Origin: a virus
Lineage: Duplodnaviria > Heunggongvirae > Uroviricota > Caudoviricetes
Direction: 5' to 3' (one strand)
DNA: 64,000 nt
IMG/VR virus record: IMGVR_UViG_2687453454_000003
Coordinates: 1-64,000 of that record
Numbering within the stretch: the stretch's first letter is position 1; each line of letters starts with the position of its first letter. The position numbers and the translations under genes were made by a program. The notes beneath the pieces were generated by a model. It worked only from the letters and a program-made list of their open reading frames with translations. It made no database searches and was not told where the DNA came from. Shown piece by piece: positions 16,616 through 55,671 of the stretch.

Positions 16616-17830
16616 TTAAGCTCGTTTCCCAAACGAACCATGAACAACGTTCTCCTCCTTCTCCAGCGCATCCATATAGTCGGCATACCATTGAAGCATC
16701 TCCCGCCTTCCATCCAGATATTGCGCATGGTTGTATGTGCCACGAATTGAGTTCTTATCAACGTGAGCGAGCTGCGTTTCTATCCACGCGGTGTTATAGC
16801 CCTGCTCATGCAAAATCGTGCTCATAGTGTGCCGGAACCCATGACCAGTTACACGTCCAGCGTAGCCAATGCGCTTAAACACTTGGTTTATGCTGGCCTC
16901 ACTCATTGTTTTCCTTGGATCATTGCGCCCGGGAAACATAAGAGGGTAATTGCCTGTTATTTCTCTAATCTTCCCAATAAGCGAAAGAGCCTGATCAGAC
17001 AATGGCACAATATGAGGCCGCCGCATTTTCATACGTGAAGCGGGTATCTCCCAGATAGCCTTGTTGAAATCAATTTCATCCCATAATGCGCCACGTAGTT
17101 CGCCAGTCCGCAAGCCGGTGATAATCAGTAGACGAGCCGCCATAACAACCAATGCGCTTCCTGAGTAACTGGACAATGCCTTGAAAAAATCAGGTAATTC
17201 TTTAGCTGTAAGGAAAGGGTAATGATTAGATTCATGGCCTTGCATCGCGCTAGTAAGGTCTGGTGCAGGGTTATACTCTGCGCGACCAGTGACTATTGCA
17301 TAGCGGAAAACTTCCCCGCACCGCTGCCTCACTTTTTTGGCTTTTTCTGTAGCACCGCGCCCCTCGATGCGCCGCAGCACATTCAGAAGTTCAAGTGGTT
17401 TGATTTCGGCGATTGGTTTTTTGCCAATGTAAGGGAACACATCTTTGTTGAAGGCTTCGAGGATGTCTGAAGCATAACCAGCAGACCATTTTTTTAATTT
17501 GCTGCTGTGCCACTCAAGGGCAATATCTTTGAAGGTGTTGTTTAACTGCGTTTCCCGGGCAATCTTTTCCTCTCGTTTCGCTTCCATCGGATCGATACCA
17601 CCAGCGATACCTCTTTTCGCATCTTCACGTTTTGCCCGAGCATCGGCTAGAGTAACCTCAGGATACACACCTAGTGCCAATAGCTTCTCTTTACCAGCTA
17701 CACGATATTTAAGTCGCCAGTATTTACCTCCATTAGGTTTTACCAAGAGATACAAACCGCCACCATCGGCCAGCTTGTAAGCCTTCTCTTTTGGCTTGGC
17801 TGTGTCTATTTGACGGGCATTGAGTTTCAC
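16616..17830 (-). CDS. int: tyrosine integrase, P4 family
   Basis: 404 aa; N-terminal arm-binding pattern (AKPKEKAYKLADGGGLYLLVKP.G.KYWRLKYR) and C-terminal catalytic region with GHGFRHT and YNHAQYLD.RR. Confidence 0.9.
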   Translation of the reverse strand: MKLNARQIDTAKPKEKAYKLADGGGLYLLVKPNGGKYWRLKYRVAGKEKLLALGVYPEVTLADARAKREDAKRGIAGGIDPMEAKREEKIARETQLNNTFKDIALEWHSSKLKKWSAGYASDILEAFNKDVFPYIGKKPIAEIKPLELLNVLRRIEGRGATEKAKKVRQRCGEVFRYAIVTGRAEYNPAPDLTSAMQGHESNHYPFLTAKELPDFFKALSSYSGSALVVMAARLLIITGLRTGELRGALWDEIDFNKAIWEIPASRMKMRRPHIVPLSDQALSLIGKIREITGNYPLMFPGRNDPRKTMSEASINQVFKRIGYAGRVTGHGFRHTMSTILHEQGYNTAWIETQLAHVDKNSIRGTYNHAQYLDGRREMLQWYADYMDALEKEENVVHGSFGKRA

Positions 17831-17978: not shown

Positions 17979-18000
17979 TTGGGGAGATGTTTGAATGGTG

Positions 18001-18464: not shown

Positions 18465-21400
18465 TTATTTACTGTTTATCAATTGCAATAATGGGATCTC
18501 AGCTACATCACTAGGAATATAGGGGTCATCTTCTTTTAAATTAACCCCAATACAATCAACATCATTTAACCCAATTTCCCAAGCCCACCTAACATCTAAC
18601 GTACTCATTTCTATCCCTAAACTATCTCTTTGTGGATGCTCAGGAACAATATTTTTTAACATCGCATCACATCCAAGATAGAATTTTCCACAGGCCTGAT
18701 ACGCAGCAAGAAATCTTTCTAAATTGACGTTACTATCAGGAGTCATCGTATTAATTCTACTGATCATTGTCATTCTTTTAGTTAATGGCGTTGTCATCAT
18801 ATTTTCAGATATCAGCACTCTATAATGATTTGGGTTTTTAACTGAAATACCCTTGACAATACAAACCCGTAATCTGGCTTTACTATCTACCAAGCCTACT
18901 GATGATATAAGATCTTTAAAAATATCCTCACCTATATTGGGGTGTTTAAATAATAGATATAACCCTGGATAACACGATTTTAATTGAGCGAAGCCTACTC
19001 CTTGCCAGCGTGTTCTATCCCATAGACGAGGCTTGATTAGACTTTGTATTGAATAATCTTTATGCGTTATATTTTCGGAATTAAGTTCCTCTTCAGGCAT
19101 TATTCCTTTACCAGGTGTTGGAACATTTACATCCTCGATCTCCAACACTTTCGGAAATTCACTATCCCAGGGTTTATCTCTTAAAAGAGGGTAAGTTTTC
19201 TTTTCAGCACTGGTGGAATAAATTTTCTTAATTTGTTGATCAATATCATTTCCAAGAACATTTTCAATAGCTTTGATACAGGCACCGAAACTAATTGCTC
19301 TGTCAAATGCAGCATCTTCGAATATCATTCTTTCAATGTATTCTGTATTTTTTGTAAAAAATAACTCAGGGAGAAGATCAAATACTATTTTCTTGAATTC
19401 ATTAGTAATTTTTTGTTGAGCATCGACTCTAAATGAACTTGTTTCAAAACCATTGCAATTTATAGTAAGGTTTAGTTTTCCATTATTGCTATTTATTTCA
19501 TGTGATAAGGAGAAGTCATCTTCATCATCTGCTATTACTTCAATAATTAAAAATGCTTCTTTCAGATGGATGTTATCAATCGTACAAGTTGCAAAAGCAC
19601 TCTCTAAAAGCGCTAAGATACTAGTTGAAAACTCTATAAATGGTGACCGATTCGGAAAGTTAATTTCTATAGTGCATCCAAAAATAAAAGATGTATATAT
19701 TCCTCGTTTATCATAGTTATCTTTTATTCCTTTACTATTGAATCCAGCATCAAAGTCACGTATTTCTTGCAAGAAATCATTATGATCTTTATCGGCAGTA
19801 ACTTCATACTCATGTTCAAAATTTTCAATATAACCTAAAGCATATTTAAGACATCCAGATGATACAAAAAGACCTAATCTATCGAGTTCATCGGGAATAT
19901 TACTCTGTCGATTTATTCCATTTAGGTCAGTGTTCAAAATGAGTTGACTTATGTAAAAATCAACTTGCTGATTTTCTTTATCGCCGAACGAACTTTCACT
20001 GATATTTTGGTTAATTATTAAAAACAGTTCATACCATAAAAGAGCATGTGCTAATTTCCCTAGTTTTATTTCTGCCAGGCATAAACTATAATAAATCTCA
20101 GCCTGCTTTAATGATATCTCATCATACTTCCAGTAGTTATCTGTAATCAAAGAAGCGGATAGAAGCAAGCATGAACGTGAACTCCATAGCAACCCAATGG
20201 ATTCGTAAGCATAAGCAATAGCTTTTAATGCTAATATAAATTTATCTCGTGATTCCTCTTTATAGAGTGGTATAAATGATTTTCCTAAATACTTGATTGC
20301 CTGATAAGGGTGACCATTTTGAATCCTCTTTATACCTCTTCGTAGATTTAATAATGCCCCTTTAACTTCACCACCTCTAACAGCAGATTGCTCAGTCATA
20401 TAGTCTAATAAATTTTCATATGCATCTACCTCGAAAAAAATGTCATCCAGTTCGTTCAAAAGTTGGAAGTTCTTCTCAAAGGAATAGCCTATTAAATTCC
20501 CACTATTTTTAAAAATTTCATGTAACTCTTCAAATACAACCGAAGCATCTTCTACATCTGAAAACGTTGTCAATTTATAAATAGCTTTGTGAGTTCTCGC
20601 TGTGAGTGCATTACTGGGACGTGATTCATCGTCAGCTATCTCATCTAGTTTAGCAAGCATGTTACGTTCAATATTCTCAATATCGATTGTAGATGTTGCG
20701 TTGTTAAGTCTAATATAACTTTTATGAACGGTTACTAAATTTAAAACTTTCTCCCATTTTGAGGAATTAGTTGATGATGCAATACTTTCATATGCAAATT
20801 GAAGATTTTCTTCAAAGAGATTAAAATCTTCCATCCAAAAATGAGACTTCCAGGCATATTGATAATACGCATCTAGCAATTGTTGATTAGTCCCGAATTT
20901 CTTTGATATTTTTATAGCTCTTTCAAATAGACCTTGTGTTTCAATTAGTGGTTTCTCAAGTTCAGCGCTTAACTCTGCAATTTCTAAAAAAATATCCACC
21001 TGTTCATATGAAATTTCAGCAGGGTTTATTTTCTCTCTAATATACTCGGTTAACTCTTCATATTTTTTATGCTTTTTATAATCATTTTCTCCAAAAATAA
21101 CTTCTCTTTTATATTGCGTTGGAACTGACAATGAATCAATGGCCAATTGCTCAAAATTATTTTTGTAAATTTGATCTAATAGCCAATTAATATCTAATAT
21201 ACGAACATCTATTCCAGTTTTTGTTTTTAGTGTATCCTCAACCTCTGAACGAATATTGGACTTTGCAGACTGGTTCGTTACGCAAAATACTTTAGCATAC
21301 CCACGTTCTGTTTCTTTTATCTTAAGTACATCTTCATGGCATTTTTTCTTCCAGTCTTTACGTGTACTTACCGCAAAGGCCCAGCGTTCTCTATTTGATG

Positions 21401-21716
21401 CTTCATTAACGCCTTCGAACCAAAGAAGCTTATTCTGTTCTGAAACAGGGAATGTTTGTGTGTCAGTTTTACCATCCCCCCCTGCTACAGGGCCAGTTTG
21501 TTCAAGGAGATTAGGGCAAATTATTTTTTCACATATTTTTTTTGCAAAATCTTCGAATTGTAGTTCTTGATTTCTTGTATTTAGCGTAGAGAGGAAGTGT
21601 TCCAGTACAACTCTGTCTAAAGTACCAGTCTCTCTGATTGTTGAATCAGAAAATTTTTCAGGGCGACGGCGCCTTAGAAATTCTTTAGATGAAAATTTGG
21701 TTTTCTGTACATTCAT
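18465..21716 (-). CDS. large orphan protein (1083 aa), AT-rich; possible N-terminal Mrr-like nuclease motif plus long helical region
   Basis: Single uninterrupted ORF with low GC; GGDGKTD...EQNK near residue 80 loosely resembles the Mrr catalytic motif (D...QxK); no Walker A found. Confidence 0.6.
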   Translation of the reverse strand: MNVQKTKFSSKEFLRRRRPEKFSDSTIRETGTLDRVVLEHFLSTLNTRNQELQFEDFAKKICEKIICPNLLEQTGPVAGGDGKTDTQTFPVSEQNKLLWFEGVNEASNRERWAFAVSTRKDWKKKCHEDVLKIKETERGYAKVFCVTNQSAKSNIRSEVEDTLKTKTGIDVRILDINWLLDQIYKNNFEQLAIDSLSVPTQYKREVIFGENDYKKHKKYEELTEYIREKINPAEISYEQVDIFLEIAELSAELEKPLIETQGLFERAIKISKKFGTNQQLLDAYYQYAWKSHFWMEDFNLFEENLQFAYESIASSTNSSKWEKVLNLVTVHKSYIRLNNATSTIDIENIERNMLAKLDEIADDESRPSNALTARTHKAIYKLTTFSDVEDASVVFEELHEIFKNSGNLIGYSFEKNFQLLNELDDIFFEVDAYENLLDYMTEQSAVRGGEVKGALLNLRRGIKRIQNGHPYQAIKYLGKSFIPLYKEESRDKFILALKAIAYAYESIGLLWSSRSCLLLSASLITDNYWKYDEISLKQAEIYYSLCLAEIKLGKLAHALLWYELFLIINQNISESSFGDKENQQVDFYISQLILNTDLNGINRQSNIPDELDRLGLFVSSGCLKYALGYIENFEHEYEVTADKDHNDFLQEIRDFDAGFNSKGIKDNYDKRGIYTSFIFGCTIEINFPNRSPFIEFSTSILALLESAFATCTIDNIHLKEAFLIIEVIADDEDDFSLSHEINSNNGKLNLTINCNGFETSSFRVDAQQKITNEFKKIVFDLLPELFFTKNTEYIERMIFEDAAFDRAISFGACIKAIENVLGNDIDQQIKKIYSTSAEKKTYPLLRDKPWDSEFPKVLEIEDVNVPTPGKGIMPEEELNSENITHKDYSIQSLIKPRLWDRTRWQGVGFAQLKSCYPGLYLLFKHPNIGEDIFKDLISSVGLVDSKARLRVCIVKGISVKNPNHYRVLISENMMTTPLTKRMTMISRINTMTPDSNVNLERFLAAYQACGKFYLGCDAMLKNIVPEHPQRDSLGIEMSTLDVRWAWEIGLNDVDCIGVNLKEDDPYIPSDVAEIPLLQLINSK

Positions 21717-21778
21717 GATTTTGACGCTCCTCTTGCTATCGACAATAAACCTTTGTATGCATCAACTAGATTTATTGT

Positions 21779-22348: not shown

Positions 22349-22933
22349 TTACTCCATTACAGGGACAGCAGGCCACTCAATATCCGGTGCTACTGATGTA
22401 TCAACACGGTTCAGCAATACCCGATACTTTTTCCAGGCTGCCAGCAACGAGATTTCTTCCTCCGTTGCGATTTCCAGATCTACAGCATCCTGAAGTGGCG
22501 CAATATGCTCACTGGCTACCTGCATCAGGCTGTTTTTTGTTTCTTCCGCCTCCCGGATCCGGAACAGTTTTTCTGCTTCTGCATCTTTCACCCAGGCTGT
22601 GCCGTTCCACTTCTGAAACTCCCCTTCCGGCGATAACCAGGTAACATTTTCCGGTAACGGACCGAGTTCAGAAATAAATAACTCGTCTCCTGACGCTACG
22701 TCATAAACCGTTTTACCCCGATGGTCTTCAACGAGATGCCACGATGCCTCATCACTGTTGAAAACAGCCACAAAGCCAGCAGGAATATCTGGTGGTGCAA
22801 TATCGGTACTGTTTGCTGGCAGACCTGTATGAGGCGGAATATATGCATCACCTTCACCAATAAATTCATTAGTTCCGGCCAGCAGATTATAAATTGTTAT
22901 GGTCCGTGGTTGTTCACTCATTCTGAATGCCAT
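22349..22933 (-). CDS. tfa: tail fiber assembly protein
   Basis: 194 aa (lambda Tfa is 194 aa); directly downstream of the side tail fiber gene. Confidence 0.85.
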
Positions 22934-25900
22934 TATGCAAGCCTCACAATATAGTTAAATGCGATGTTTTTGACGGTGTTTTCCGCGTTACCAGCAGCGT
23001 TAACGGTGATGGTGTGTCCATGCGAACCAATCGCAACGGAGTGCGTATGAGCACCAATACCGACAGTATGTGCATGTGCGCCTGCGCTTGCAGCAGTGCC
23101 GGACAGCGAGTGGGTATGAGCACCATCTGATGATGTCTTCCCTGCATTACGAGTCTGGCCACTACCGCTTGTTGTGCTCATAATCCCCGCGCTTAGATTT
23201 GAAATCGCGGTATAACCATTAGGGAAAATGCTCGTGTTCGTGCCACCAAATGCACCGGAACTCTTGTGTTGGTGCGCACCGGCACTATTTGCTGTCCCGC
23301 TAATACTATGGGTATGCGCACCAGTGTTATTCGTGGATTTAGTGCCGTAATCAAACGATGATGTGGTTTTCGTACCCAAATCCGTACTGGATACGCTGGC
23401 GCTGTGGGTGTGCGATTTAATGCCGTCCTGTTCCTGAGACAATACGGCACGACCACTGGCGGGCTTGCCCTTAATCGTCCAGCCACGCATATCAGGGATC
23501 ACGCCTGACGGATAAGCGGCCGCAAGTTTCGGGTAAGCAGATTTGTCAAAAGTCTGCCCCTGCATCAGGGCATAACCAGACGGAACGGTATCTGATGGCC
23601 ACGGGATTGGTGCGCCGACTGGGTAGCTTTCTGGTGGAAGATTTTTCGAGGTATAAACTTCTGCCCAGTCTTCCTCAAAACCATAACCGTCTCTTGAAGA
23701 ACGGTAGAACAGACCACCATTTCTGTAATGCGCCTTCATCTGCAGGGTCCGGCAACTTCCGACTCCGGTATAGAAGTTAACCAGAATATAGCTGTCGCCA
23801 GAGCGGGTGACATTGTAAGCGCCTGATTCGGCATTCCAGGGAACGCCACCATCCGCATCGGCATATGTATCCGTTGCCCTTCTGGCAAAAGCAGCCACAT
23901 GCGCGGCGGTTAAAGTGATATCAGTAGAACCATCAAATGGAACACCGGATATTTTTCTTGCAGTCTGAAGTTTTGTAGCAGTTGCAGCATTACCAGTAGT
24001 GTTCTGATTACCCGTAGTGTTTACACCTGGAAGGTTAATATTTGCAGAACCGTCGAAAACAACTCCACCGATAGATCTTGCCGTCTGCAATTTCGTGGCT
24101 GTACTTGCATTACCATTCAATGAACCAGTTAATCCACCTGTAACAGACAACGGACCTGAAACTGTTCCTCCGGTTGTTGGCAGTGCTCCAATATCTGATG
24201 GTGTAGGTTTCTGATGTGTGCTATACATCGTATAAACAACACCATCGGTAACGCTGGAAGGCTTACTCGCTGAATATGTTGGCGATGTATAAACAGAAAC
24301 TGTCGCATTTGCAGTACAATCCCAATGGATATTTACACGAGTCGCATAATTGCCAATCTCAACGTAAATATCATATGTATCGCCGGATGTGTTGATCCAG
24401 GCGAAATTCGTTAATCCGACGGCTGTACGCTTCCACAAAGCCCCGGTAATTCCTTTGGGGTTTCCATTGCCTGCTCGTAGAACCAGTTCTGAAATGCCTG
24501 CCTGATGTGGGGAACCGACGTTGTAACCAGCGCCACCAATCAATGCGATGTAAACGATGGAACTCGCTTGTGGCATGGTAACCGTAGCCAGTTTGAACCA
24601 CCCAGCCCCGCCAGAGAAAGACATCGTTACTGAATTTAAAGTACCAATATCTTTCGGCGTTAATGTTATATCCGCAGTCAGTGCTTTTCCGTTAACTTTT
24701 CGGTTAGATGGCACCCTGCTATTCGCATTGTCATTGGCTGCTTTAACTGCTTTTGGCGTTGCGGCCAGCGATTCACTGGTGCTATCAACAGCACTGCTAA
24801 GTTTCACAACACCTTTAGTTGTAAGGCTTGCGTCTTCCATCGCAACTGCACCGGCAATCTCTTCAGCACGATCAGCAGCAGCTTCCGCACGGGTCGCAGC
24901 GGATTCAGCAGCAGTTTTGCTCTGAGATGCTGCCGTCGCACTGCCTGCCGCCTCTGTTGCTTTCGTGGATGCCGTCGTGGCGCTGCCCTTCGCTGCTGAC
25001 GCCTGTCTGGTCGCCTCATCTTTTGAAGCAGACGCAGATGATGCCGATGACGCTGCCGAACTGGCGGACGATGCGGCTGCCGTTTTTGAGGATTCTGCAC
25101 GGGTTTCCGACGCTTTCGCATTCGTTTCGGATGTCTTCGCTGCGGAAGCAGACCTCGCTGCTGCGCTGGTCTGTTCAGTGGCTTCGCCAGCCTTCGTTGT
25201 GGCTGTTGAAGCAGACGATGCGGCACTTTCTGCCGATTTTCCGGCGGCGGTGGCACTGGCTGAGGCCTGCCCGGCACTTGTTGACGCTGCACTGGCAGAT
25301 AATGCAGCCGCTGTTTTTGAGCCTGCCGCAGCTGAGGCGCTCTGTCCCGCTGCCGTTTCAGAAGACCTGGCGTTCGTCTCGGACGTTTTTGCCGCCTTCG
25401 CAGAATTTGCTGCCGCCGTTGCCGAGGAAGCGGCACTACTGGCGCTCGAGGCTGCGCTCGTTTCTGATGATTTCGCTGCCTCTTTTGAGGCCGCCGCATC
25501 CCGGGCTGAGGTGGCAGCTTCTGACGCTTTCGTGGTCGCGGTGGATGCAGAAGTGGCTGCAGATTGTTGTGACGCTGCAGCATTCGTTTCTGACGTTTTC
25601 GCCGCACCAGCACTGGTAGCCGCCGCGCTTTTTGAGGACTCTGCAGCGGCAGCACTTTTTGATGCTTCAGTAGCCTTTGTTGATGCCGTTCCTGCGCTGG
25701 AAGACGCTGACTGAGCCGACGTCGCGGCCTGCCCGGCTGATGTGCTGGCTGCACGTGCTGAGCCTGCAGCATCAGCCGCATGGGTTGCCGCCTCACGGGC
25801 TGATGTGCCGGCATCGCTGGCTGACTTCTTCGCGGCTGCCGTGTTCTGTGCCACCGCGGACGCGTTACGCTCCACCTCTTCCACCATCAGTTCAAAACGG

Positions 25901-26217
25901 CGCAGTGCCTCAGGACGGGCATCATCCTCCGTCATGGCACCGAGAAAATCATTCAGCGTACCGGGTCGGGAATCTTCATACACGGTGATGGTCCCGGCAT
26001 GTGACGGCGGGAATCCTTCCACCAACAGAATAACGCTGTACTGACCGTACTCAACGTCCATGCTGTAACGCCCGGCTTCATCCGGATTTTCTGAGGCCAG
26101 CGTGTTTACCACCACCGTGGTGCTGTTACGTTTTGCTTTCAGCTGGATTGTGCAGTTCTGTACCGGTTTTCCTGTGCCGTCTTTCAGTACACCTGAAATC
26201 TTTACTGCCATATTCAC
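22933..26217 (-). CDS. stf: side tail fiber protein
   Basis: 1094 aa; long Ala/Ser/Thr-rich repeat region with recurring AAKTSETNA; position after lom. Confidence 0.85.
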
Positions 26218-45891: not shown

Positions 45892-45939
45892 AAGGGATAT
45901 CAGTTAAGCTATCCCGTGTAGGGTATAAGCCATTATCAA

Positions 45940-45965
45940 AGCCACTCTGTAGGGAGTGGCTTTTG
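45940..45965 (+). terminator. hairpin GCCACTC-tgtagg-GAGTGGC followed by TTTTG
   Basis: Direct reading; downstream of the small plus-strand ORF. Confidence 0.3.
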
Positions 45966-46172
45966 TAATGGCAATAAAAAGCCCCGCGAATGCGAGGCTA
46001 AATCCTGGTATTTGTAATGACTGGCTCTTATCTCAACGCAGCCCCTTACCGCGCGCAAGATGCTCAATATCAAGCATCAGCAATGAGATGTTTAATCTGG
46101 ATTCACTCCAGAAGTGATCACCATCCTGTCTACAGAGCCAGATGTGAAGGATGATGAGTAAAATTATCGCTA

Positions 46173-46652
46173 TCATCGAAGGCATTGCGTCCTGATGTAT
46201 TCCTGAAGCGTTCTCAGTGCTGTTTGGTCGCGGATAATTCCGTCCCGGATACCGAGAACGTTTCGTCCAGCAACTGGAGAGAGTTCGACGGTGGCATCAT
46301 TGCCCATGCCGGAGGCGCTGGAGGTTTCGGCTGAGGATGGCACAGGGCATTTTCCTTTGACGAACACCCGACCACCATTATCAAGCTTGCGCCGAAGAGC
46401 ATCATTTTCAGCTTTCGCATCAGCTAACTCCTTCGTGTATTTAGCATCGAGTGCATCAGCAGAACGCTGGCGCTGCTGCATGTCAGTAATGGTGGCGGTC
46501 GCCTGCTTCAGCTCACTGACTTTTTTATCTCGCTGTTCTTTGTAGGCGATGGCGTTATCACGGTAATGATTGACCGCCCACGACAGGCAGACGATGATGC
46601 AGATAACCAGAGCGGAGATAATCGCGGTTACTCTGCTCATTGTTGCCCCCAC
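46173..46652 (-). CDS. i-spanin (Rz-like)
   Basis: 159 aa, N-terminal TM helix, coiled-coil middle; downstream of endolysin. Confidence 0.75.
46214..46420 (-). CDS. o-spanin lipoprotein (Rz1-like) embedded in Rz in another frame
   Basis: 68 aa; lipobox MVVGCSS and Pro-rich [16 protein letters not shown]; entirely inside the Rz ORF. Confidence 0.6.
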
Positions 46653-47134
46653 AAACAGACTTCACGCTCAATCTCACGACGAGTCATCAGGCCTTTCCAT
46701 TGCTTACCGCCAGCATATGTCCAGCGACGTAGCTGATCACATGCGCCTTTGATATCGCCCTGGTTTATTTTGCGAAGAAGCGTCGATGTTCTGAAATTGC
46801 CAGCACCCACGTTGTAGACGAACGAGTACAGAGCGCCGCGCGTTGTTTCCGGTATATCGACTTTGATGTACGGGTTAATTTGTCTGGCAACCGTGGCAAG
46901 GTCTTTATTCAGGAGGGCTTTGCATTCTGCTTCGGTATACGTTTTACCGAGCATGATGTCTTTTCCGGTGTGTCCGTGACATACAGTCCATACGCCAACG
47001 ATATCTTTGTATGGTATGTAGCTGACACCTTCCAGGCCATCGTCACCACTTGGGCCAGTGATTAACACTGATGCTATAGCAATTGCTCCGCCACCAATAG
47101 CAGCAGCAACTGCTTTTCGTAATGATGGAGGCAT
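46637..47134 (-). CDS. SAR endolysin (T4-type lysozyme, phage 21 R-like)
   Basis: 165 aa; Gly/Ala-rich N-terminal signal-anchor-release segment [16 protein letters not shown] followed by lysozyme domain. Confidence 0.85.
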
Positions 47135-47412
47135 TATTCACCTCTCGCAGCCTTGCGCTTATCTTCTTTAATCTTGAAATAAAGGTTTGTCAGGTACGTC
47201 AGCAGGCCAAATACCAGACTACCCAGCACACCTATTGCCGCCCACTGTGAGGGCGTGACTTTATCGAGCAACTGTAAAAACCAGTACCCGGCACTACCTG
47301 CTGAGGTGCCATAGGCGACACCCGTTGTTAACTTATCCATGGATTTCATAACCCCACCTCGCAGATGCGGGTGCTGTGTAATGGAAATAAAAAGGCCACC
47401 TGACGTGGCCAC
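47134..47412 (-). CDS. holin (phage 21 S-like pinholin; true start may be an internal Met)
   Basis: Two TM segments and charged C-terminus; MKSMDK internal start resembles the S21 dual-start motif. Confidence 0.7.
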
Positions 47413-47416
47413 CAGA

Positions 47417-48469
47417 TTATTTCCCCACCAGCTCGTTTATCTCTTTCACTGTCTGATTAAACCGCTCTGACTCAAGCTCAACACCTAAGGCCCGACGCCC
47501 CAGCGCCATTGCTGCTTTTATTGTGGAACCGGATCCCATAAAAAAATCAGCAACCAGATCACCTGGTCGACTACTGGCATTGATTATTTGCCTGAGCATA
47601 TCCGCCGGTTTCTCACACGGATGTTTACCCGGGTAGAACTGAACGGGTTTATGCATCCAGACATCGGTATAAGGCACGGAGACTGATACGGAGAAATAGC
47701 GCCGGAGAGATTTAAACTCATCCAGCAATTCAGAATATTTACGATTCAGTGAATCATAAGATGCCACCAGCTGGTGGTGCGGTTGTTCCAGTTGTTGTTC
47801 CTGAAACTTCTCTGCCGCTATACGGGAAAACAGTGCCTGTAACTTCCGATAGTCAGCCTCATTCGGCAACTGCCACTGACTGGCACCAAACCAGTGGGAA
47901 ACCATATTTTTCTTACCTGTGGCTTTGGCAATTTGTTTTGCCGTTATACCCAGTTCGGCACGAGCATCCCTGAAATACGATATCAGCGGTGCCATTATGT
48001 GCTGTTTGAGTTCCCTTTCTTTTGCTGCATAGCCGTCACTTTTGCCGCGATATGGCCCCTGGTAATGTTCAGCAAACAGAACTCGCTCTGTGGCAGGAAA
48101 ATATGCACGCAGACTTTCTTTATTACACCCATTCCAACGTCCGGACGGCTTCGCCCAGATGATATGGTTAAGCACGTTGAAACGTTCACGCATCATGATC
48201 TCAATATCAGATGCCAGGCGATGCCCACAGAACAGGTAAAGGCTTCCGGCAGGTTTTAACACCCGCCAGAACTGGGCCAGACAGTGGTCCAGCCACTTAA
48301 GGTAATCTTCGTCCCCTTTCCACTGATTGTCCCAGCCGTTGGGTTTCACCTTGAAGTACGGCGGATCGGTAACAATCAGGTCAATGGAATCATCAGGCAG
48401 GGACTGAATAAAATGCAGGCAATCAGCGTTGATTAAATCAACACTGTTTATTTTTACAGTATTTTTCAT
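47417..48469 (-). CDS. DNA N6-adenine/N4-cytosine methyltransferase, orphan
   Basis: 350 aa; motif IVTDPPY; no adjacent restriction endonuclease. Confidence 0.8.
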
Positions 48470-48618
48470 GGATCAGTAAGCGTAACTCTGGTAGGCTCAC
48501 TCTGCTTTTGCGCTAAAGCAGTGGGCCGTGGTTCGCTTGTGACCAGTAAGCATGAGCGAATGGCTGGCAGGTGCTACCAACACCCGCCAGCCGCCCATTT
48601 TCACAAATTAAAAGTCCT

Positions 48619-48837
48619 TCATTGCTGAAGGCGTCTGTAACAGCCGAACTGGTAATCTGCCAGCCCCGCCATAACCAACTGGGTCAGTATTAACTGACAG
48701 CGTTCGCGTGAAAGATATGTGTTTTGTGCAATCTCCCCGACTGTTGCCGGTTCGATGCTTAATTCATTAAAAACAACTTTCGCCGTTTCTGTCATATCTT
48801 GCTGTTTTAGCATGTCTTTTTTCCTTCTGGTTAACAT
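48619..48837 (-). CDS. hypothetical protein (72 aa)
   Basis: ORF track. Confidence 0.35.
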   Translation of the reverse strand: MLTRRKKDMLKQQDMTETAKVVFNELSIEPATVGEIAQNTYLSRERCQLILTQLVMAGLADYQFGCYRRLQQ

Positions 48838-49103
48838 GACATACCAATAACTCTTGTCTAAAAAGCCAGCAAGATAAAAAGTCAGTATTCACGACCACCA
48901 GCGTGTTTACTGTACTGCACCAAGTTTACAGGTACAAAAAAACCGCTCAGCGGCGGGTTTAAGTTGTGTGGCGAAGTAACCACTCTTAACACGATACAAT
49001 ACTTTTTGCGTACGCGTTAAGATTTTTTTATAATTACTTACCTTTCTCACACCAAATGTAAAAGCAATATTTTTTGATAATCCTGTTGTTTAAAGGGAAT
49101 AGC

Positions 49104-52100
49104 ATGAAATCAATTGTACACTTATCCGACTTACACTTATCAGACTCAAAAAAATATGGTTTTCACTGGAAGAAAGCCAAAGAACTGGTCACAGTATTAG
49201 TTAATGATATACATTCATTAAGTAAAGAAAACAACCTCCAGATAGATGCCATTTTTTTTACTGGGGATTTAACGTTTTCTGGAACCAAAGAGCAATTTCA
49301 ACTATTTGATGAACATTTCCTCTCTCCACTTATTCAAAAGCTGAACATCAGTAAAAAAAACATTTTTATAACCCCAGGCAATCATGATGTGGACAGAAGT
49401 AAAGTTCATCCACTTGAAAAACAACTGCGAACTGGTTCGGACGAAAATTTCATATCATCATACTTTGATATGATAAATAATGGAGAGTATTCATGGGAAC
49501 GTCTCTACGAGTACTGTGAATATAATAAAACAATATTAGATCATCATTCTGATGTTGAACAATCTGGACGCATGATTACATGCTTTAAAGTAACAAACAA
49601 ATTATACGTCGTTAGCGTAAATAGCGCATGGTTAGCTATGGATGATAATGATATTGGTAACTTACGAATTACCCAAAAGCAAATTGATTTTATCAATCGT
49701 GCCAAAATACCTTCTGATGCAAAAATAATATTATTATGCCATCATCCTTTAGATTGGTTGAATAAGAATGATCGTGACATTTTTTCAACATTTATTGAAA
49801 AAAAAGTTTCAATGTTCTTTTTTGGTCATATGCATGATTTTAAACAAAAACTAGAATCTAGTTTTTGTGAAAACATCACCCTCTTTTTGCAAGCAGGAAC
49901 TTTGGATACTAGTGAAAATGTATCAGGCTATTCATTAATAAATTTTAATAGTTCAAATGTCATATCAGACGGAAGAATTTTTTATAGAAAATATAATAAA
50001 GAAAAAACATGCTATGAACCATGGGAAGAAAGAGGAAATGGTGGTGTTTTTGATTTCACCACTGAGAAAACTCTAACTTTTGACTCTGAAAAATTTGCAA
50101 CATTATCTAATGAGATTCTAGAGAAAACTGATAAGGATTTATTAATTAACATTGGAATCTCTGATGAAAAGAAAAAAAGTCTAAGAACCCTATTTACTGA
50201 ACCAAATTTCCTTGAATTTGCTCTTGGAGCCATGCCTTCTATGGAGATTAAGTCCACACAAGAATTACTAGAAGGACGAAACAACCTTGTGATTGTAGGA
50301 AACCATAGCTCAGGTAAAACATCTCTTTTAAAATACTTATTCATTAAGAGTCTAGAAAAACAGGCCAGCAAAGACTTCAGTAACTTTGCATTTTTCTTAG
50401 ATTTAAATGCAATTGAATTAAATAGCTTAAATACAATTGTAAGCGCATTATGTACACAATATTTCAATGCAGATTCGACCACATCTTTTGAAGAAAAAAT
50501 TAAAAAAATGTTACATGAGGGAAGATGTGTTATATATATTGATAATCTGGACAATATAAATACAAAAGAACAATGTGTAATTTCTGATTTTTTTATAAAA
50601 TTCAAAGAATGTAGATTTATCGTAACTGCTGGCTATAATAATTCAGATCTGGTAGTTAAAATATTATCAGATGAAAGCAAAGCTAAATTTCATGCAATTG
50701 CTATAGGTTCATTACGCAGATCTAATGTTCGCGATATTGTATCAAGATGGCACGACACAACATCACAAAATATAATATATAAAGAAATCACGCGAACAAT
50801 CAACAATTCGCAACTTCCTCATAATTATTTTACATACTCAATGCTTTTAGCTATTTATGAAGTTGATCATGACGTTAAAGGAATATTAAGTGAGTCTGAT
50901 ATTATAGAAAACTTCATAGAAATTTTGCTTCGTAAACATTTTATGGATACTCCGCCTAATAAGCCACAATTTAAAGAACTTCGACATTTTCTTGGATATT
51001 TAGGATTTACATTATTCAAAAACAAATGTAATTTTATTTCAAATAATGAACTTCTGCAGACTGCAATAATTTTCAATAGAGATACCATGCATGATTATCA
51101 AGTAGAAGACTATATAAAACCATTAAAAGAATGTGGAATATTGAAAGAAGAGCTATGTAATGTGATTTTCTCGCAGCCTTGCTTTTTATACTATTCCATC
51201 GCTTATTTCATGAAGCATAACGAAGAGCTAAAGAAAGAAATTTTATCCGATAATAATTACCTACATCTACATAAAGTTATTGAATACTATTCATCGCAGA
51301 ACTCATCTAGTCTTGATTTATTATACTTACTTAAAAAGAAGACTAATGCAATCAAATCTTCTTTATCTGAACGAATGCTCGAAGATAAGGGAATAAATAT
51401 TGAAGATATAAAGATTGAAGACTCTAATACTTTCTCTATTTTAGATATGGTATCAACCCAAGATGATTTCGAAAAAAAGATAGAATCACTCCGTGCAGAT
51501 AGAGAAAAAGATGACGCGCGACTAGATGAATTATCACCTTTATCTGATAAAGATAAAAAAGCTAATATATCAAATGTTAGAGCTGAAGGTAATAATAATC
51601 TGTTACATGATCTTATTAACACTTTATCTCTTTATGCAAGGGTATTCCGTAGTACTGAATTATCTATGGAAAGAGAAAATATATTAAATATATTTAATGA
51701 CCTTGTAAAGGGTTATGTTTTTTACATGAAAGCGTCACTAGTACTAATGGATGATTCATTTGTTCTTCCAGTAATACTCCCTGCATTAGAAAAGAAAATG
51801 CAAGAGGATAAATTAACCGATAACGAAAGGCAACGAGTTTTTGAAATGTTTAAACTAGTATTGTCTTTAGTTCGCTCAATGATCCCAAATAACATACAGT
51901 TTATTATGAGCAATGACTTAAGCTCGAAAAAACCACGTATTGCAAACATTATTACTGAATCAAAAGACTCAAATAGCAATCCTGTAGAAAAGGCTATTTT
52001 AACTTTCACCTTAATGGATATTAAAGATGAAATGGTTATACAATTAGCTAACGATTTAGCAAAGATACAAAACAAAGTTGTTCAAGAATCTCTTTTCTTC

Positions 52101-52256
52101 AAGATTAATCAAATTATAACAAGTAACTATGATTTAAAAAGAACTGAAGAAGAAGCATTGAAAGAGTTAGCAAAAAACATTGGCATTAAAAGAAAATTAA
52201 TTCTCACACCCAAGATTAGTGATGCCTTTAATACGTTAAACCGCATAGGACATTAA
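49104..52256 (+). CDS. metallophosphoesterase / P-loop NTPase fusion protein (1050 aa), AT-rich moron
   Basis: ATG at 49104 after AAGGGA; calcineurin-like motifs LSDLHL, FTGDLTF, GNHD, CHHP, GHMH; Walker A GNHSSGKTSLL near residue 400; Walker B VIYIDNLDN; about 500 aa helical C-terminus. Confidence 0.7.
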   Translation: MKSIVHLSDLHLSDSKKYGFHWKKAKELVTVLVNDIHSLSKENNLQIDAIFFTGDLTFSGTKEQFQLFDEHFLSPLIQKLNISKKNIFITPGNHDVDRSKVHPLEKQLRTGSDENFISSYFDMINNGEYSWERLYEYCEYNKTILDHHSDVEQSGRMITCFKVTNKLYVVSVNSAWLAMDDNDIGNLRITQKQIDFINRAKIPSDAKIILLCHHPLDWLNKNDRDIFSTFIEKKVSMFFFGHMHDFKQKLESSFCENITLFLQAGTLDTSENVSGYSLINFNSSNVISDGRIFYRKYNKEKTCYEPWEERGNGGVFDFTTEKTLTFDSEKFATLSNEILEKTDKDLLINIGISDEKKKSLRTLFTEPNFLEFALGAMPSMEIKSTQELLEGRNNLVIVGNHSSGKTSLLKYLFIKSLEKQASKDFSNFAFFLDLNAIELNSLNTIVSALCTQYFNADSTTSFEEKIKKMLHEGRCVIYIDNLDNINTKEQCVISDFFIKFKECRFIVTAGYNNSDLVVKILSDESKAKFHAIAIGSLRRSNVRDIVSRWHDTTSQNIIYKEITRTINNSQLPHNYFTYSMLLAIYEVDHDVKGILSESDIIENFIEILLRKHFMDTPPNKPQFKELRHFLGYLGFTLFKNKCNFISNNELLQTAIIFNRDTMHDYQVEDYIKPLKECGILKEELCNVIFSQPCFLYYSIAYFMKHNEELKKEILSDNNYLHLHKVIEYYSSQNSSSLDLLYLLKKKTNAIKSSLSERMLEDKGINIEDIKIEDSNTFSILDMVSTQDDFEKKIESLRADREKDDARLDELSPLSDKDKKANISNVRAEGNNNLLHDLINTLSLYARVFRSTELSMERENILNIFNDLVKGYVFYMKASLVLMDDSFVLPVILPALEKKMQEDKLTDNERQRVFEMFKLVLSLVRSMIPNNIQFIMSNDLSSKKPRIANIITESKDSNSNPVEKAILTFTLMDIKDEMVIQLANDLAKIQNKVVQESLFFKINQIITSNYDLKRTEEEALKELAKNIGIKRKLILTPKISDAFNTLNRIGH

Positions 52257-52273
52257 AATGCCACTTTTTTGAT

Positions 52274-52293
52274 ATAATTAAAAACCACCCGTA
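52274..52293 (+). terminator. hairpin ACCACCC-gtaaca-GGGTGGT after the phosphoesterase-NTPase gene
   Basis: 7-bp stem directly after the stop codon; weak U-tract. Confidence 0.35.
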
Positions 52294-52359
52294 ACAGGGT
52301 GGTTCTCTACCTCTGCTGCAATATATCTCAAATAATTAAAACGAGCAGGAATTTACCTA

Positions 52360-52539
52360 TCAAAAAACTTGACTACCGGAATTCGAATTTAAAACCCCAT
52401 TAGTATTTTTAGGTTTTGTCATTTTCAAATTAGCTTTCATACTACATGCCATAAAATATTGGGTAAGAAAAATGGTATTTAAATGATTCCAAGAAGTAGT
52501 TTTATCATAAAAATAATTAATTCTTTGTTTCTTATTCAT
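52360..52539 (-). CDS. small hypothetical protein (59 aa) in the AT-rich island
   Basis: ATG at 52539 preceded by AAGGAG with 5-nt spacing; convergent with the large gene. Confidence 0.3.
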   Translation of the reverse strand: MNKKQRINYFYDKTTSWNHLNTIFLTQYFMACSMKANLKMTKPKNTNGVLNSNSGSQVF

Positions 52540-52771
52540 GCACACTCCTTAGTAAAATATAGAAATAAAAGACAAATCACTTATAAATGTCATGTTAAAA
52601 AAAATTCTCATCATGATTATTGATGAGTGATTTTATATTATCAAAAAATTATATTATTAACAACTCTTGTTTATTACTCAACCAATACCAAAATCATTAG
52701 CCACGCATATATATTTTCAAACATATAAAAACAACACACAATATAAAATCCAGCCACAAAAACTCGCACTT

Positions 52772-53131
52772 CTATTTTATGAAATAAAAACACCCTTCAA
52801 TAAAACCTAAAGCAGTTTGCAATTCCTTTCTAATCGTACCGTCCGAACATTTTCGCCTCTTCGCAATAGTTCTAAGCGAAATACCAATAACAAAATGAGC
52901 TATAATTAGCTCATATTCCTCTGGTTTATACTTACACAGGCGGGCAACACAGCCGTCTATCATGATGCCTTCATCATCATCACACTGAAGGCGTATTTTT
53001 TTACCATGAGGTAAAAGCCCCTTAAAGCCTGCTGCTATCGGCTGCCAGTCCACACCACTGTTATCTGCTGCAGCCCATGCTCCCCAGCGGTCCAAAACTT
53101 CATACATATCACGCATCAACTTTCTCCACAA
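52772..53131 (-). CDS. late-gene antiterminator Q-like protein
   Basis: 119 aa; C-terminal HTH-like GISLRTIAKRRKCSDGTIRKEL; position upstream of late region; family from recollection. Confidence 0.45.
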   Translation of the reverse strand: MWRKLMRDMYEVLDRWGAWAAADNSGVDWQPIAAGFKGLLPHGKKIRLQCDDDEGIMIDGCVARLCKYKPEEYELIIAHFVIGISLRTIAKRRKCSDGTIRKELQTALGFIEGCFYFIK

Positions 53132-53133
53132 AA

Positions 53134-54129
53134 TCAGGCCAGCACACCAATTGCCAGTGCACGATCGATAAAACGAAATATCAGCTCCAGCTGGGAGCCA
53201 TACTTCTCTTCAAATGCCACGGTATCCGCATGCAGCTCGTCGTGATGCTTTCTGCACAAAGGCAACACAAAGAGGTCATGCGCTTTTGTACCCATTCCCC
53301 CCTGACCGTGGCCTATCAGGTGGTGGGGATCATCAGCGGGCTTTCCACAACATGCACACGGCTGTGTCTTAACCCAGCGCGTGTACTTCTCATTAACCCA
53401 GCGGCGACGTTTTGGGCGTAACATAAAAGACTCCGGCGACTCCGGATCCACTTTCAGCGCCAGCACCTTTTTTGCCTTATCCTGGATGATGCTGGTGGCA
53501 GGAACCGAAGGCACAAGGTCACTTTCCCGGGTGACAGACGGCACAACAGGCTTTGGTAATCTCAGTGCCTTACGGGCTGCACTTTCCGGTAAGGCATCCG
53601 CTAGGTCATTACGAATCAGCCACCAGCACAGTTCCGGCATTGTCACAACGTGACTATCATCAAAACCGAGATCCCGACGCACAACAGACAACACCCAGCG
53701 GGCACAGTTATCCGTTGCCATTGATTCCAGCCGTTCCGTGAACTGATCGCGCAGCTGGTTATCACAGTGCCAGCACAGACGGATTGCGCCCGGAGCGTGT
53801 CGCATTGTGGTCATGTTCTCGCTGTGCCAGTCGGAATGAGGCCACTGGCAGCCTTTTTCACGAAGTAACCAGCTTTCAAGACATTTCACGCCACCAGCAC
53901 GACGGATCACTGCCTCATTGCGGAACACGGCCCGAACAGCAGGATCATCCGCCAGCGGTTGTGATGCCGCGGGAACGGCACCACTGGCGAAAGATGAATA
54001 ACGTTCCGGCTCAGGCTCCAGCAGTACACGCCCCTGCATAAACAGGGGCATCAGCTCTGAACCTGGTCTGAACAATACGATCCCCATACGCGGGGCAATT
54101 TCAGGAGTCAGTAGTGCTCTCACGGTCAC
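53134..54129 (-). CDS. DUF968-like protein with C-terminal HNH-like Cys/His cluster
   Basis: 331 aa; C-terminal CACCGKPADDPHHLIGHGQ...CRKHHDELH. Confidence 0.55.
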   Translation of the reverse strand: MTVRALLTPEIAPRMGIVLFRPGSELMPLFMQGRVLLEPEPERYSSFASGAVPAASQPLADDPAVRAVFRNEAVIRRAGGVKCLESWLLREKGCQWPHSDWHSENMTTMRHAPGAIRLCWHCDNQLRDQFTERLESMATDNCARWVLSVVRRDLGFDDSHVVTMPELCWWLIRNDLADALPESAARKALRLPKPVVPSVTRESDLVPSVPATSIIQDKAKKVLALKVDPESPESFMLRPKRRRWVNEKYTRWVKTQPCACCGKPADDPHHLIGHGQGGMGTKAHDLFVLPLCRKHHDELHADTVAFEEKYGSQLELIFRFIDRALAIGVLA

Positions 54130-54130
54130 C

Positions 54131-54940
54131 TCAATGAACGGTATCGAGCAGCTTTAACAGCTCAGTGAATCGGGATTCGAAGAAATGCGGCTGCGTCTCG
54201 CGCGGATTTGCAGGACTGGTGATGTTCTTGCCGAACATGCAGCCTTTCGCCGTCAGCGACCAGAATTTTTTGATGTTGTTAATCGCTGTACGGCTGTATC
54301 GTTCGCGCTGTTCGACGATCCCCAGCTTCGCCATCTGGTGATATGCCTGATTAGCCGTCAGGCGGATACCATACTGCTTCAGCAGTGCACTCAGTGACAG
54401 CGTGGGGCGGCTTGAGCCATCAGGCGCGTCAGCAGGAGCATCAATGGCATAACGCGGTGCCAGATTCGGTAAGCCAACAGCCTCCTGGAGTTTCTGACAG
54501 GCCCCAAGCACAGATGAGTTAGACAGATTTAACTCCCGGCGCATAAAGTCCAGCAGAATCACGCCAGCCTGCATCTTGTCAGCAGCCTGTCCGGATAACT
54601 TTTCCGGCGCGCTGGTTACCATATCGAAAGTACGGATCACCTTCAGATGGAATGACGGGCTGATCCACATTGCATAGGCATACACCAGTTCCTTACAGAC
54701 ATACGTTCCCCGTTCATTTCCCCCATGAATCACACTCACCGGGTCAACACCCAAATTCTGGGTGTTGATTAATTCATGAACAAGATCAATAGTTTGTTGG
54801 CTGGAAAGAAACTTTCCTGGCTCCTTGGTTCTGGCATTTGCACCAGATGCTACTGCTGCGCGATGCAGATCGTTCAGGCTGTAACGCTCATAAGCATCAC
54901 GACGAACTTCAATACCATCAATGACCATCAGATTATTCAT
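54131..54940 (-). CDS. KilA-N domain protein
   Basis: N-terminal pattern VRRDAYERYSLNDLHRA...VIHGGNERGTYVCKELVYAYAMWISP. Confidence 0.7.
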   Translation of the reverse strand: MNNLMVIDGIEVRRDAYERYSLNDLHRAAVASGANARTKEPGKFLSSQQTIDLVHELINTQNLGVDPVSVIHGGNERGTYVCKELVYAYAMWISPSFHLKVIRTFDMVTSAPEKLSGQAADKMQAGVILLDFMRRELNLSNSSVLGACQKLQEAVGLPNLAPRYAIDAPADAPDGSSRPTLSLSALLKQYGIRLTANQAYHQMAKLGIVEQRERYSRTAINNIKKFWSLTAKGCMFGKNITSPANPRETQPHFFESRFTELLKLLDTVH

Positions 54941-54959
54941 ACTTCGTTTCTCCTCTTAA

Positions 54960-55348
54960 TCAGGCAGCTGCACCCGCCGTTTTCTCGTACTTACTGATAG
55001 TGATCTCGACCTTTCCTTCCGGGATAACCGGTCCCCACTCCACCAGCATTCTTTTCACCTGACTGTCGTCTTCCCACACCCCGCGTGGGTCAGGGCGTCA
55101 AACAGCGCCTTGTTATAGTTGTCCAGATCGCGGATCCTGTTATCCGGAGGAAACAACACGATCTCCACTGAAGCAGGTGCCGACGTTGGTTTCGGCAGAC
55201 GACGTAACTGCTCAACTATTGCTGCGCACGCCGCGCTCTGGAATTTTCGCCCCGCCGCGCTTATCAGGCTCTTACCAGCAAACGCCCCTTTGTTGGGGTG
55301 TCGCCAGTACGTGTTCACGCTGGGCGGAAAAGGCAGGATCAGCTTCAT
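54960..55348 (-). pseudogene. rusA: RusA-family Holliday junction resolvase with apparent 1-nt indel in a C/G run (55079-55082)
   Basis: ORF ends ..DALTHAGCGKTTVR; the other frame continues VWEDDSQVKRMLVEWGPVIPEGKVEITISKYE.. to a stop at 54960. Confidence 0.65.
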
Positions 55349-55671
55349 ACTTTCAGGCCCCTCTCATGTAACCAGTGGGTTGCACGCAGCCTTGCGTTTT
55401 CCTCACCGGCAAGCAGTGAGCGGATAATCCCGACCGCCTCGCTGTCGTCGTCCTTCACCGCGGTATGAAGCGTGATGCCCCGGGCCACGCCACGCTTTAT
55501 CGTGATGACGCCTTTTTTCTCCAGTGCGCGAAGATGCTCCACCGCTGCATTCACTGAACGGTATCCCAGCATGGTTGCCACCTCCTGATTGGTTGGCGGG
55601 AAGCCACGTTCTTTCTGATAAGAAATCAGCATATCCAGCACCTGCTGCTGGCATTGAGTTAACGTCGTCAT
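55345..55671 (-). CDS. LexA N-terminal DNA-binding-domain-like protein
   Basis: 108 aa; LTQCQQQVLDMLISYQKERGFPPTNQEVATMLGYRSVNAAVEHLRALEKKGVI parallels the LexA wHTH. Confidence 0.5.
   Translation of the reverse strand: MTTLTQCQQQVLDMLISYQKERGFPPTNQEVATMLGYRSVNAAVEHLRALEKKGVITIKRGVARGITLHTAVKDDDSEAVGIIRSLLAGEENARLRATHWLHERGLKV

Follow-up and report, generated by a model that had tools for sequence, protein, structure and literature searches.

Where does late transcription start in a lambdoid prophage whose late regulator gene is followed by a long insertion of foreign DNA? This question is raised by a virus assigned to Caudoviricetes, IMG/VR record IMGVR_UViG_2687453454_000003, whose positions 1 to 64,000 constitute the window analysed here, that is, the whole stretch of 64,000 nucleotides. 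Phage genes run from right to left in this window, the gene for the Q-like antiterminator, the late genes and the lysis genes all being on the minus strand, and an AT-rich island carrying a large plus-strand gene stands between Q and the genes that it is expected to control. A first-pass annotation, made from the sequence alone, had placed at 48840-52771 an AT-rich insertion of about 3.9 kb separating Q from its late operon, and had proposed that late transcripts started from a promoter next to Q would have to read through the island in antisense. The analysis presented here points to another arrangement. The island is an accessory insertion, and we consider it probable that it is a defence cargo, or "moron", at a site of this lambdoid prophage that is a hotspot for recombination. 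It would stand between the end of the Q frame and a late promoter cassette dependent on Q, leaving the late operon uninterrupted.

Results and Discussion

An accessory AT-rich island with one border inside Q

The GC content of the island (49035-52789, 3,755 bp) is 0.296, in comparison with 0.490 (45000-48837) and 0.531 (52790-56600) for its flanks, and this segment is the GC minimum among all 3,755-bp windows of the 64 kb, the remainder of which shows a mean of 0.498 with a standard deviation of 0.052. When GC content was plotted along a 500-bp sliding window, each step from ~48,850 to ~52,800 remained at 0.29-0.32, with values of 0.46-0.58 on either side, bearing out the initial description of a segment far more AT-rich than the flanking phage DNA.

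The borders of the insertion were nonetheless displaced relative to those first given. Its left junction, at ~49035, is set by allele alignments and by the existence of a cargo-less allele; the 195 bases at 48840-49034 are kept in more than 1,400 Escherichia coli genomes, and therefore lie outside the island and belong to the phage backbone. On the right side, homology between alleles stops within the last 5-6 codons of Q, which sets the junction at ~52789, inside the gene. The last 5-6 codons of Q and its stop codon are thus island-derived, and the C-terminal tails of Q differ by cargo allele. Of the interval 48840-52771 originally proposed, an AT-rich insertion of ~3.75 kb stands, its first 195 bases being reassigned to the backbone and its right edge being moved into Q.

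The entire segment was found in 15 of 5,426 complete E. coli genomes, the copy in the EC26 prophage being 100% identical, and in a cargo-less allele only 15 nt separate the Q stop codon from the sequence found at 49020 of the window. The accessory nature suspected at first pass is in this way confirmed, the segment not being core sequence of all relatives. Rfam searches of 46-56 kb (E up to 0.1) gave no match, nor did scanning of all 64 kb for tRNAs, and the island therefore contains no known RNA gene.

A conserved block on the late-gene side of the island

Immediately past the left junction, a short backbone segment reading CTAACGCGTACGCAAAAAGTATTGTATCGTGTTAAGAGTGGTTAC...terminator on the late strand is kept in alleles with the same Q type, whatever their cargo. 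It is also kept where the DNA past the terminator differs, as in strain GPEC617, in which the holin gene follows the terminator almost directly. A synthetic query for the block-Q junction of the cargo-less allele matched 13 E. coli genomes contiguously, and in the cargo-less strain Combat2C1 the order is Q stop codon, 15 nt, block, terminator, ArtAB-like toxin genes and lysis genes, all on one strand. As the block adjoins Q in the cargo-less allele and is now placed at 49020-48942, the island must split Q from the putative late promoter pR', and not pR' from the late genes. Phages SfV and Ayreon, whose Q is an unrelated protein of 250 amino acids (aa), share with the window only the terminator and the DNA downstream of it, SfV displaying its own TTGCAT-N17-TAAGAT at the equivalent spot. 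The terminator itself, that is, the hairpin with a minus-strand T7 tail already noticed at first pass, was recovered at 48954-48942, where a terminator scan was positive and where SfV and Ayreon carry an annotated terminator.

In an alignment of 32 loci, the block is composed of (C/T)TAACG (GTAACG in one locus), an 18-bp spacer and TAnnnT, the latter being present in 32 of 32 with its middle three bases varying freely, and its positions lying outside the search pattern used to collect the loci. It is followed by a conserved G-TTAAGAGTGGT(T/C)AC and, under a strict rule, by a hairpin with a T-run 23-65 nt past the block in 25 of the 32. The segment TAACGCGTACGC, at 49008-49019, is extended by AAAA in most of these loci and contains the perfect 8-bp palindrome GCGTACGC. 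An alternative -10 element, TATTGT at 49001-48996, was dropped because conservation does not extend to the A in position 2 and the neighbouring TAnnnT (48996-48991) is invariant. A second promoter block beside Q was also ruled out, since the window contains a single copy of the 44-mer.

Beyond E. coli, a scan of one genome per species with the pattern TAACGCGTACGC-N23-AGTGGTYAC yielded 24 loci. Of these, 23 are enterobacterial by sequence content (three being filed under non-enterobacterial bins of metagenome-assembled genomes), and the other, from an alphaproteobacterial bin, is a chance match. Upstream DNA was sufficient in 18 loci, and each of them has a homologue of the Q of the window upstream of the block, in the same orientation and 283-2,897 bp away.

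Altogether, the block is most likely the late promoter cassette, and it lies on the late-gene side of the island. Within it, the invariant TAACGCGTACGCAAAA, which includes the palindrome, is a candidate binding site for Q or for another regulator; in the searchable literature, the motif AACGCGTACGC appears only as a cloning-primer sequence, and no description of the palindrome-bearing element was found there. Regarding the separation of Q from the late operon, the first-pass annotation holds for the Q gene, which is physically apart from the lysis and late genes, and is not supported for the putative pR', which remains joined to them. Its proposal that late transcripts start beside Q and cross the island in antisense is most likely wrong, considering that the putative promoter cassette at 49020-48942 is linked to the Q type whatever the cargo.

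The cargo gene encodes a predicted metallophosphatase-NACHT protein

The open reading frame (ORF) of the large plus-strand gene was confirmed to span 49074-52256, and its ATG at 49104, which is the RefSeq start and fits the N-termini of the homologues, gives a product of 1050 aa. Pfam assigns to this protein a calcineurin-like Metallophos domain (residues 13-255, E 1.3e-11), a NACHT domain (residues 405-561, E 1.6e-06, 28.5 bits versus a gathering score of 26.7) and an nSTAND_NTPase4 winged helix (residues 654-707, E 1.2e-05, with 25.7 bits, slightly under the cut-off of 27), and these are followed by a C-terminal helical domain at approximately residues 700-1050. Practically the whole chain matches the PADLOC model of the candidate system PDC-S60 (E 2.6e-97, residues 14-1039 versus 3-1001 of a profile of 1027) as well as the NCBIfam model DS8_antiphage (NF053861; E 2.8e-50, residues 6-992 versus 1-962 of a profile of 994). 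The score of the latter match is 171 bits versus an equivalog cut-off of 790, and the protein is therefore a distant relative of DS-8, different from DS-8 itself.

Across 54 homologues, the metallophosphatase motifs D9, H11, G54-D55, G92-N93-H94, H213-H214, G241-H242 and H244 are invariant. The same applies in the NTPase to G404 and D480, with G399 being nearly so; these residues are the glycines of the Walker A region and the aspartate of the Walker B region, and the Walker A reads GNHSSGKTS in the translation. An AlphaFold2 model built on the alignment of these homologues displayed a mean predicted local distance difference test (pLDDT) value of 85.7. Upon Foldseek comparison with the PDB, its top match was the YydB-type metallophosphatase model 9a6c_B (E 7e-14), and the next ones were the NACHT modules of NLRC4, NLRP3, NOD2 and NAIP5 (probability 1.0, E 1e-10 to 1e-7); a direct sequence search of the PDB with the protein gave no match. 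RefSeq labels the product only as "metallophosphoesterase".

Homologues with 57-64% identity occupy the same Q slot, in the same orientation, in prophages of Citrobacter, Enterobacter and Rahnella, and more distant ones are found in other cargo sites, namely adjacent to integrases, between genes for replication and those of the nin region, and in the vicinity of toxin-antitoxin genes. By homology, architecture and motif conservation, the island gene is a full-length distant homologue of DS-8 and PDC-S60, and a predicted anti-phage defence gene.

The slot behind Q is a prophage defence hotspot

At least six distinct cargo alleles were found between the same flanks in E. coli, all of them antisense to Q. 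They include a YejK-like protein with its partner, related to the validated DS-1 (NF053868, NF053869), PDC-M53A/B as identified by PADLOC, and KwaB-like, TIR-domain and DUF6731 proteins as annotated in RefSeq, and two of the alleles are two-gene cargos without known identity. In the 18 loci from other species, the gaps between Q and the block have a GC content of 32-41% versus 46-54% in their flanks, the main ORFs being antisense to Q in 17 of them, and their cargo comprises PD-Lambda-5_A (E 1.5e-164), an NsnB/AriA-like ATPase, PDC-M53A and a RelA/SpoT-type protein. No match in Pfam, PADLOC or NCBIfam was obtained for two-gene cargos of 87 + 246 aa (L007 780-1780) and of 308 + 182 aa (L008 780-2241 and L004 3255-4650), or for the cargo of loci L035, L042 and L044, consisting of single ORFs of 427 and 425 aa and of a 186 + 348-aa pair of which the 348-aa ORF was tested. 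These family-less cargos are candidates for undescribed defence systems.

In other cargo alleles, either 0-25 bp stand between the end of the convergent cargo gene and the Q stop codon or the two genes overlap by 8 bp, leaving no room there for a conserved promoter, and inspection of the alignment by eye revealed a hairpin-forming inverted repeat right at the Q stop codon. Two isolated phages, vB_EcoS-569R4 and mEp460_4F5, have cargo in the slot, indicating that its occupancy is compatible with lytic growth. With its conserved flanks and its many alternative, defence-enriched cargos, the slot is a prophage defence hotspot.

Such a locus can be searched for by a small PF06530 Q, the spaced motif used in the cross-species scan and cargo between them, and many Enterobacterales lambdoid prophages swap defence genes there. 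Since several of the cargos lack a known family, the slot could be mined for new systems. No description of the slot and its shared divergent promoter core was found in the searchable literature, Brenes and Laub 2025 being outside its coverage.

Elements at both ends of the cargo and the convergent 59-aa ORF

At the left edge of the island, the candidate promoter of the defence gene straddles the junction, its -35 element, TTGCGT, being in the conserved backbone and its -10 element, a perfect TATAAT, in the island, 70 nt ahead of the ATG. On the cargo strand, TTGCGT-N16-18-TAnnnT is present in 20 of the 32 loci, with unrelated cargo, versus 4.3 expected upon shuffling of the variable part, and the cargo-less allele is devoid of it. 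This distribution suggests that each cargo completes a hybrid outward promoter. The predicted start sites for late and cargo transcription are ~58 bp apart, with the palindrome GCGTACGC midway between them and overlapping both -35 elements.

At the other end, folding confirmed the hairpin proposed at 52274-52293 (-17 kcal/mol, z = -3.7), which has a U-run on the minus strand only, and Rahnella and Enterobacter present an equivalent hairpin between the defence gene and the small ORF. As the U-run of this hairpin is on the Q strand, little transcription coming from the Q side is expected to enter the defence gene convergently, and the gene should in this way be insulated.

The small ORF of 59 aa that converges on the defence gene was confirmed together with its strong Shine-Dalgarno (AAGGAG, 5 nt). 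It shares 42% aa identity with an uncalled Rahnella ORF at the same place, identities at the three codon positions being 0.52/0.56/0.38, so the third is the least conserved. Citrobacter and Enterobacter also have small ORFs with strong ribosome-binding sites at this place, which share with it only an N-terminal R-I-x-x-x-Y-F-like motif. The 59-aa product has no match in Pfam, PADLOC, PHROGs or NCBIfam, and a search among 5.8 billion proteins retrieved its own cluster only. Outside the Q slot, where the large gene has more distant homologues, no homologue of the small ORF was found beside them. The 59-aa ORF is probably a real, fast-evolving gene tied to the defence cargo in the Q slot.

Neighbouring genes and further observations

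The coordinates of all features are collected in Table 1. Q has been assigned to the Q21/933W family (bioRxiv 10.1101/651190), and its comparison with the Q21 structures 6jnx and 6p18 gave a weak match (E 0.0035). The first gene past the putative tR' is orf47-like, the same gene as SfV orf47. On the other side of Q, there is a RusA-type resolvase ORF of only 97 aa (55055-55348, minus strand), and the annotation of the identical prophage in EC26 gives this gene as a pseudogene with a frameshift.

Table 1. Features at and around the Q slot, with positions in the window.
Feature	Position	Strand	Basis
AT-rich cargo island proper	49035..52789	.	Composition, allele alignments, cargo-less allele
Defence-type gene, 1050 aa	49104..52256	+	Pfam, PADLOC, NCBIfam, motif conservation, AlphaFold2, Foldseek
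Conserved block, putative Q-dependent pR'	48976..49020	-	Single copy, cargo-less allele, conservation with Q type
-35-like TTAACG of the block	49020-49015	-	
Invariant TAACGCGTACGCAAAA of the block, with palindrome GCGTACGC		-	
-10 TATCGT of the block, then conserved TTAAGAGTGGTTAC	48996-48991	-	
Putative tR' intrinsic terminator	48934..48960	-	Stem 48954-48942, then T7; leader of ~30-40 nt
Candidate defence-gene promoter	49006..49034	+	TTGCGT 49006-49011, 17-bp spacer, TATAAT 49029-49034; read from sequence
GC-rich hairpin between convergent genes	52274..52293	.	-17 kcal/mol on minus strand, z = -3.7; -14.4 on plus strand
59-aa ORF, convergent with defence gene	52360..52539	- (Q strand)	AAGGAG Shine-Dalgarno 5 nt before ATG; annotated in RefSeq
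Weak hairpin with U8, between Q stop codon and small ORF	52607..52627	-	Terminator scan; -7.6 kcal/mol, z = -2.1
Q antiterminator, 114 aa from ATG	52772..53116	-	Pfam Phage_antitermQ (PF06530), E 1.6e-44; RefSeq
orf47-like protein, 64 aa (72 aa from upstream ATG)	48619..48813	-	phrog_331, E 4.5e-35; RefSeq
DNA methyltransferase, late unit	47417..48469	-	Pfam N6_N4_Mtase, E 1.9e-42; annotation in relatives
Lysis cassette: holin, RrrD-type lysozyme, Rz-type	46173..47412	-	ORFs; RefSeq of EC26 prophage

Regarding the DNA that follows the terminator in other genomes, the ArtAB-like genes of Combat2C1 (L010 2070-3356) encode a scabin-related ADP-ribosyltransferase and a subtilase-family AB5 binding subunit, in a stx-like placement and in late sense. 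In the Enterobacter loci L014 and L015, ~1.3-2 kb with tRNA-like sequences, recognised by eye, stand between the block and the holin genes, which recalls the tRNA genes found downstream of pR' in Stx phages. Elsewhere in the window, a second AT-rich island (18000-22000, GC 0.34-0.36) holds a single ORF of 1083 aa (18465..21716, minus strand), for which no match was found in Pfam-A or PADLOC. This second island, which has the integrase gene (16616..17830) on one side and the genes for tail-fibre assembly and tail fibres (22349..26217) on the other, represents an integrase-proximal cargo slot.

Proposed arrangement and its alternatives

In the arrangement that we favour, the defence gene would be transcribed in the lysogen from the outward-facing hybrid promoter, with its -35 in the backbone and its -10 in the island. 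Early transcription through Q would reach the small ORF and would then be expected to stop at the hairpin ahead of the defence gene. Late transcription would start at ~48985, downstream of the island and running away from it, with Q acting in trans across 3.75 kb; with its start on the late-gene side, antisense read-through of the island is not required. A foreign gene of 3-4 kb might thus be tolerated beside the late regulator because the split falls between the regulator gene and its promoter. As for the protein, and by analogy with DS-8 and bacterial NLR-like proteins, the C-terminal helical domain may recognise a phage-derived cue, upon which the NACHT NTPase would drive oligomerisation and switch on the N-terminal metallophosphatase. 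This domain would be the effector, hydrolysing a phosphoester (nucleotide, cyclic nucleotide or nucleic acid), and infection by other phages would be stopped.

Several points weigh against this arrangement. The late promoter, its start site and the binding of Q are deduced from conservation and from the canonical layout of Q cassettes; the -35 of the block agrees with the consensus at 3-4 of 6 positions and the -10 of the window, TATCGT, at 4 of 6; and TGnTAAGAG could alternatively be parsed either as an extended -10 or as a pause element that depends on sigma. The frameshift of rusA in EC26 means that the prophage copy may be slightly decayed and not fully functional, and the 1050-aa protein is so far under the DS-8 equivalog cut-off that the activity and phage range of DS-8 cannot be assumed for it. 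In addition, a consensus promoter scan omitted the block but listed minus-strand sites just downstream of Q (52720-52616), where hexamer pairs are present at 52720-52693, 52681-52653 and 52644-52616. These sites might correspond to a late promoter directly downstream of Q, from which Q-modified polymerase would cross the hairpins, the island in antisense and the 48954-48942 terminator, silencing the defence gene in lytic growth by transcriptional interference. The hairpins at 52627-52607 (weak, with U8) and 52293-52274 (strong) could in such a case be Q-suppressed terminators, and a precedent is provided by phi80, in which tai is antisense in a Q-controlled operon and Q expression lowers the level of Tai (PMC11364771). 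Nonetheless, promoter-like sites in the AT-rich DNA are no commoner than in shuffled sequences (16 found versus 21.4 expected), and the DNA beside Q is cargo-specific, being reduced to 0-25 bp or absent in other alleles. On the contrary, the sole non-coding element that travels with the Q type is the block at 49020-48976, which adjoins Q in the cargo-less allele. Moreover, loading of lambdoid Q is known to need a sigma-containing polymerase paused near the promoter, a situation that would not apply 3.7 kb downstream. We consequently regard a late promoter beside Q as unlikely.

In all occupied alleles the cargo begins next to the block, and the enrichment of TTGCGT-N17-TAnnnT on the cargo strand (20/32 versus 4.3 expected) might indicate that the block is chiefly a cargo promoter or operator, the true late promoter being elsewhere, for example just upstream of the holin gene, or the prophage being defective, for which the frameshifted rusA of the identical EC26 prophage could also speak. 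This is an improbable explanation, since in the cargo-less allele the block is unchanged, 15 nt past Q, with no divergent gene to drive, the late-strand TAnnnT is present in 32/32 and followed by leader and terminator, and in GPEC617 the holin gene comes almost directly after that terminator; both functions can moreover coexist as a divergent promoter pair. It seems very improbable to us that the large gene encodes a housekeeping- or virulence-type phosphoesterase, that is, an ordinary lysogenic-conversion gene and not a defence one. Its bare RefSeq name and its score under the DS-8 equivalog cut-off would allow it, and the defence role of the protein is predicted from homology, but its architecture fits DS-8 and PDC-S60 end to end, its STAND/NACHT core has an NLR-like fold, the slot is occupied in other genomes by known or candidate defence systems, and its homologues are found in other cargo sites of mobile elements, beside integrases and near toxin-antitoxin genes.

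Defence cargo placed between Q and its late promoter cassette, the arrangement retained here, would also allow the slot to work as a built-in switch, an extension that we put forward tentatively and hold to be rather doubtful. If the 16-mer bearing GCGTACGC binds Q, loading at pR' upon induction would occlude the cargo promoter, and defence would go off as the late genes turn on. The 59-aa ORF, which belongs to the transcription unit of Q and is found with the defence gene only in the Q slot, could be an induction-coupled self-immunity factor keeping the NLR-like sensor from firing on the late proteins of its own phage. The conserved prophage context and the candidate partner ORF may help to find the trigger of metallophosphatase-NACHT systems and the way in which their carriers are protected from them.

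Comparison with known systems

The island gene appears as a further member of the DS-8/PDC-S60 kind, in a slot apparently undescribed in the searchable literature. DS-8 (DefensePredictor system 8) is a single-protein system that protects E. coli and needs both its metallophosphatase catalytic residues and its NACHT ATPase, its substrate being unknown (PMC13092281). The island protein resembles DS-8 and PDC-S60 in being a single chain of ~1,000 aa that combines a calcineurin-like metallophosphatase at the N-terminus with a NACHT module and has intact catalytic motifs, and differs from them in its distance (171 versus 790 bits), in its pairing with a small convergent ORF and in its specific prophage slot. 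No useful literature was found on PDC-S60, nSTAND4 or anti-phage metallophosphoesterase-NACHT proteins, and a preprint on bacterial STAND receptors makes no mention of metallophosphatases (PMC12803255). A published list of effector domains found in bacterial NACHT proteins includes calcineurin-like phosphoesterases (bioRxiv 10.1101/2022.07.19.500537). With the bNACHT and Avs (AVAST) systems, the island protein has in common the succession of effector, STAND NTPase and C-terminal sensor, as well as a predicted fold like that of animal NLR NACHT modules. On the contrary, no Avs or bNACHT model of PADLOC beat PDC-S60, and the C-terminal helical domain of the island protein is uncharacterised.

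As in the P2/P4 hotspots and among lambdoid morons, alternative AT-rich cargos are exchanged at a fixed position between conserved phage flanks. The stx toxin genes sit downstream of pR' and tR', in late sense. Their placement, and that of the ArtAB-like genes, differs from that of the island cargo, which is upstream of the putative pR', antisense, and between the Q frame and the promoter. The "noncontiguous operon" TaiEcA/AtiEcA of phi80 also has a defence gene antisense to Q-controlled genes and a small adjoining gene in phage sense (PMC11364771). The phi80 gene, however, breaks up the Q-dependent operon, and late transcripts overlap it, whereas the island gene lies upstream of the putative pR', its small ORF being in the Q (early) unit. 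Finally, the canonical cassette of Q21/933W-type antiterminators has in common with the window a PF06530 Q gene and, before the late genes, a promoter-like element, a short leader and an intrinsic terminator. In its textbook form Q directly adjoins the promoter, whereas here 3.75 kb of cargo stand between Q and the putative promoter.

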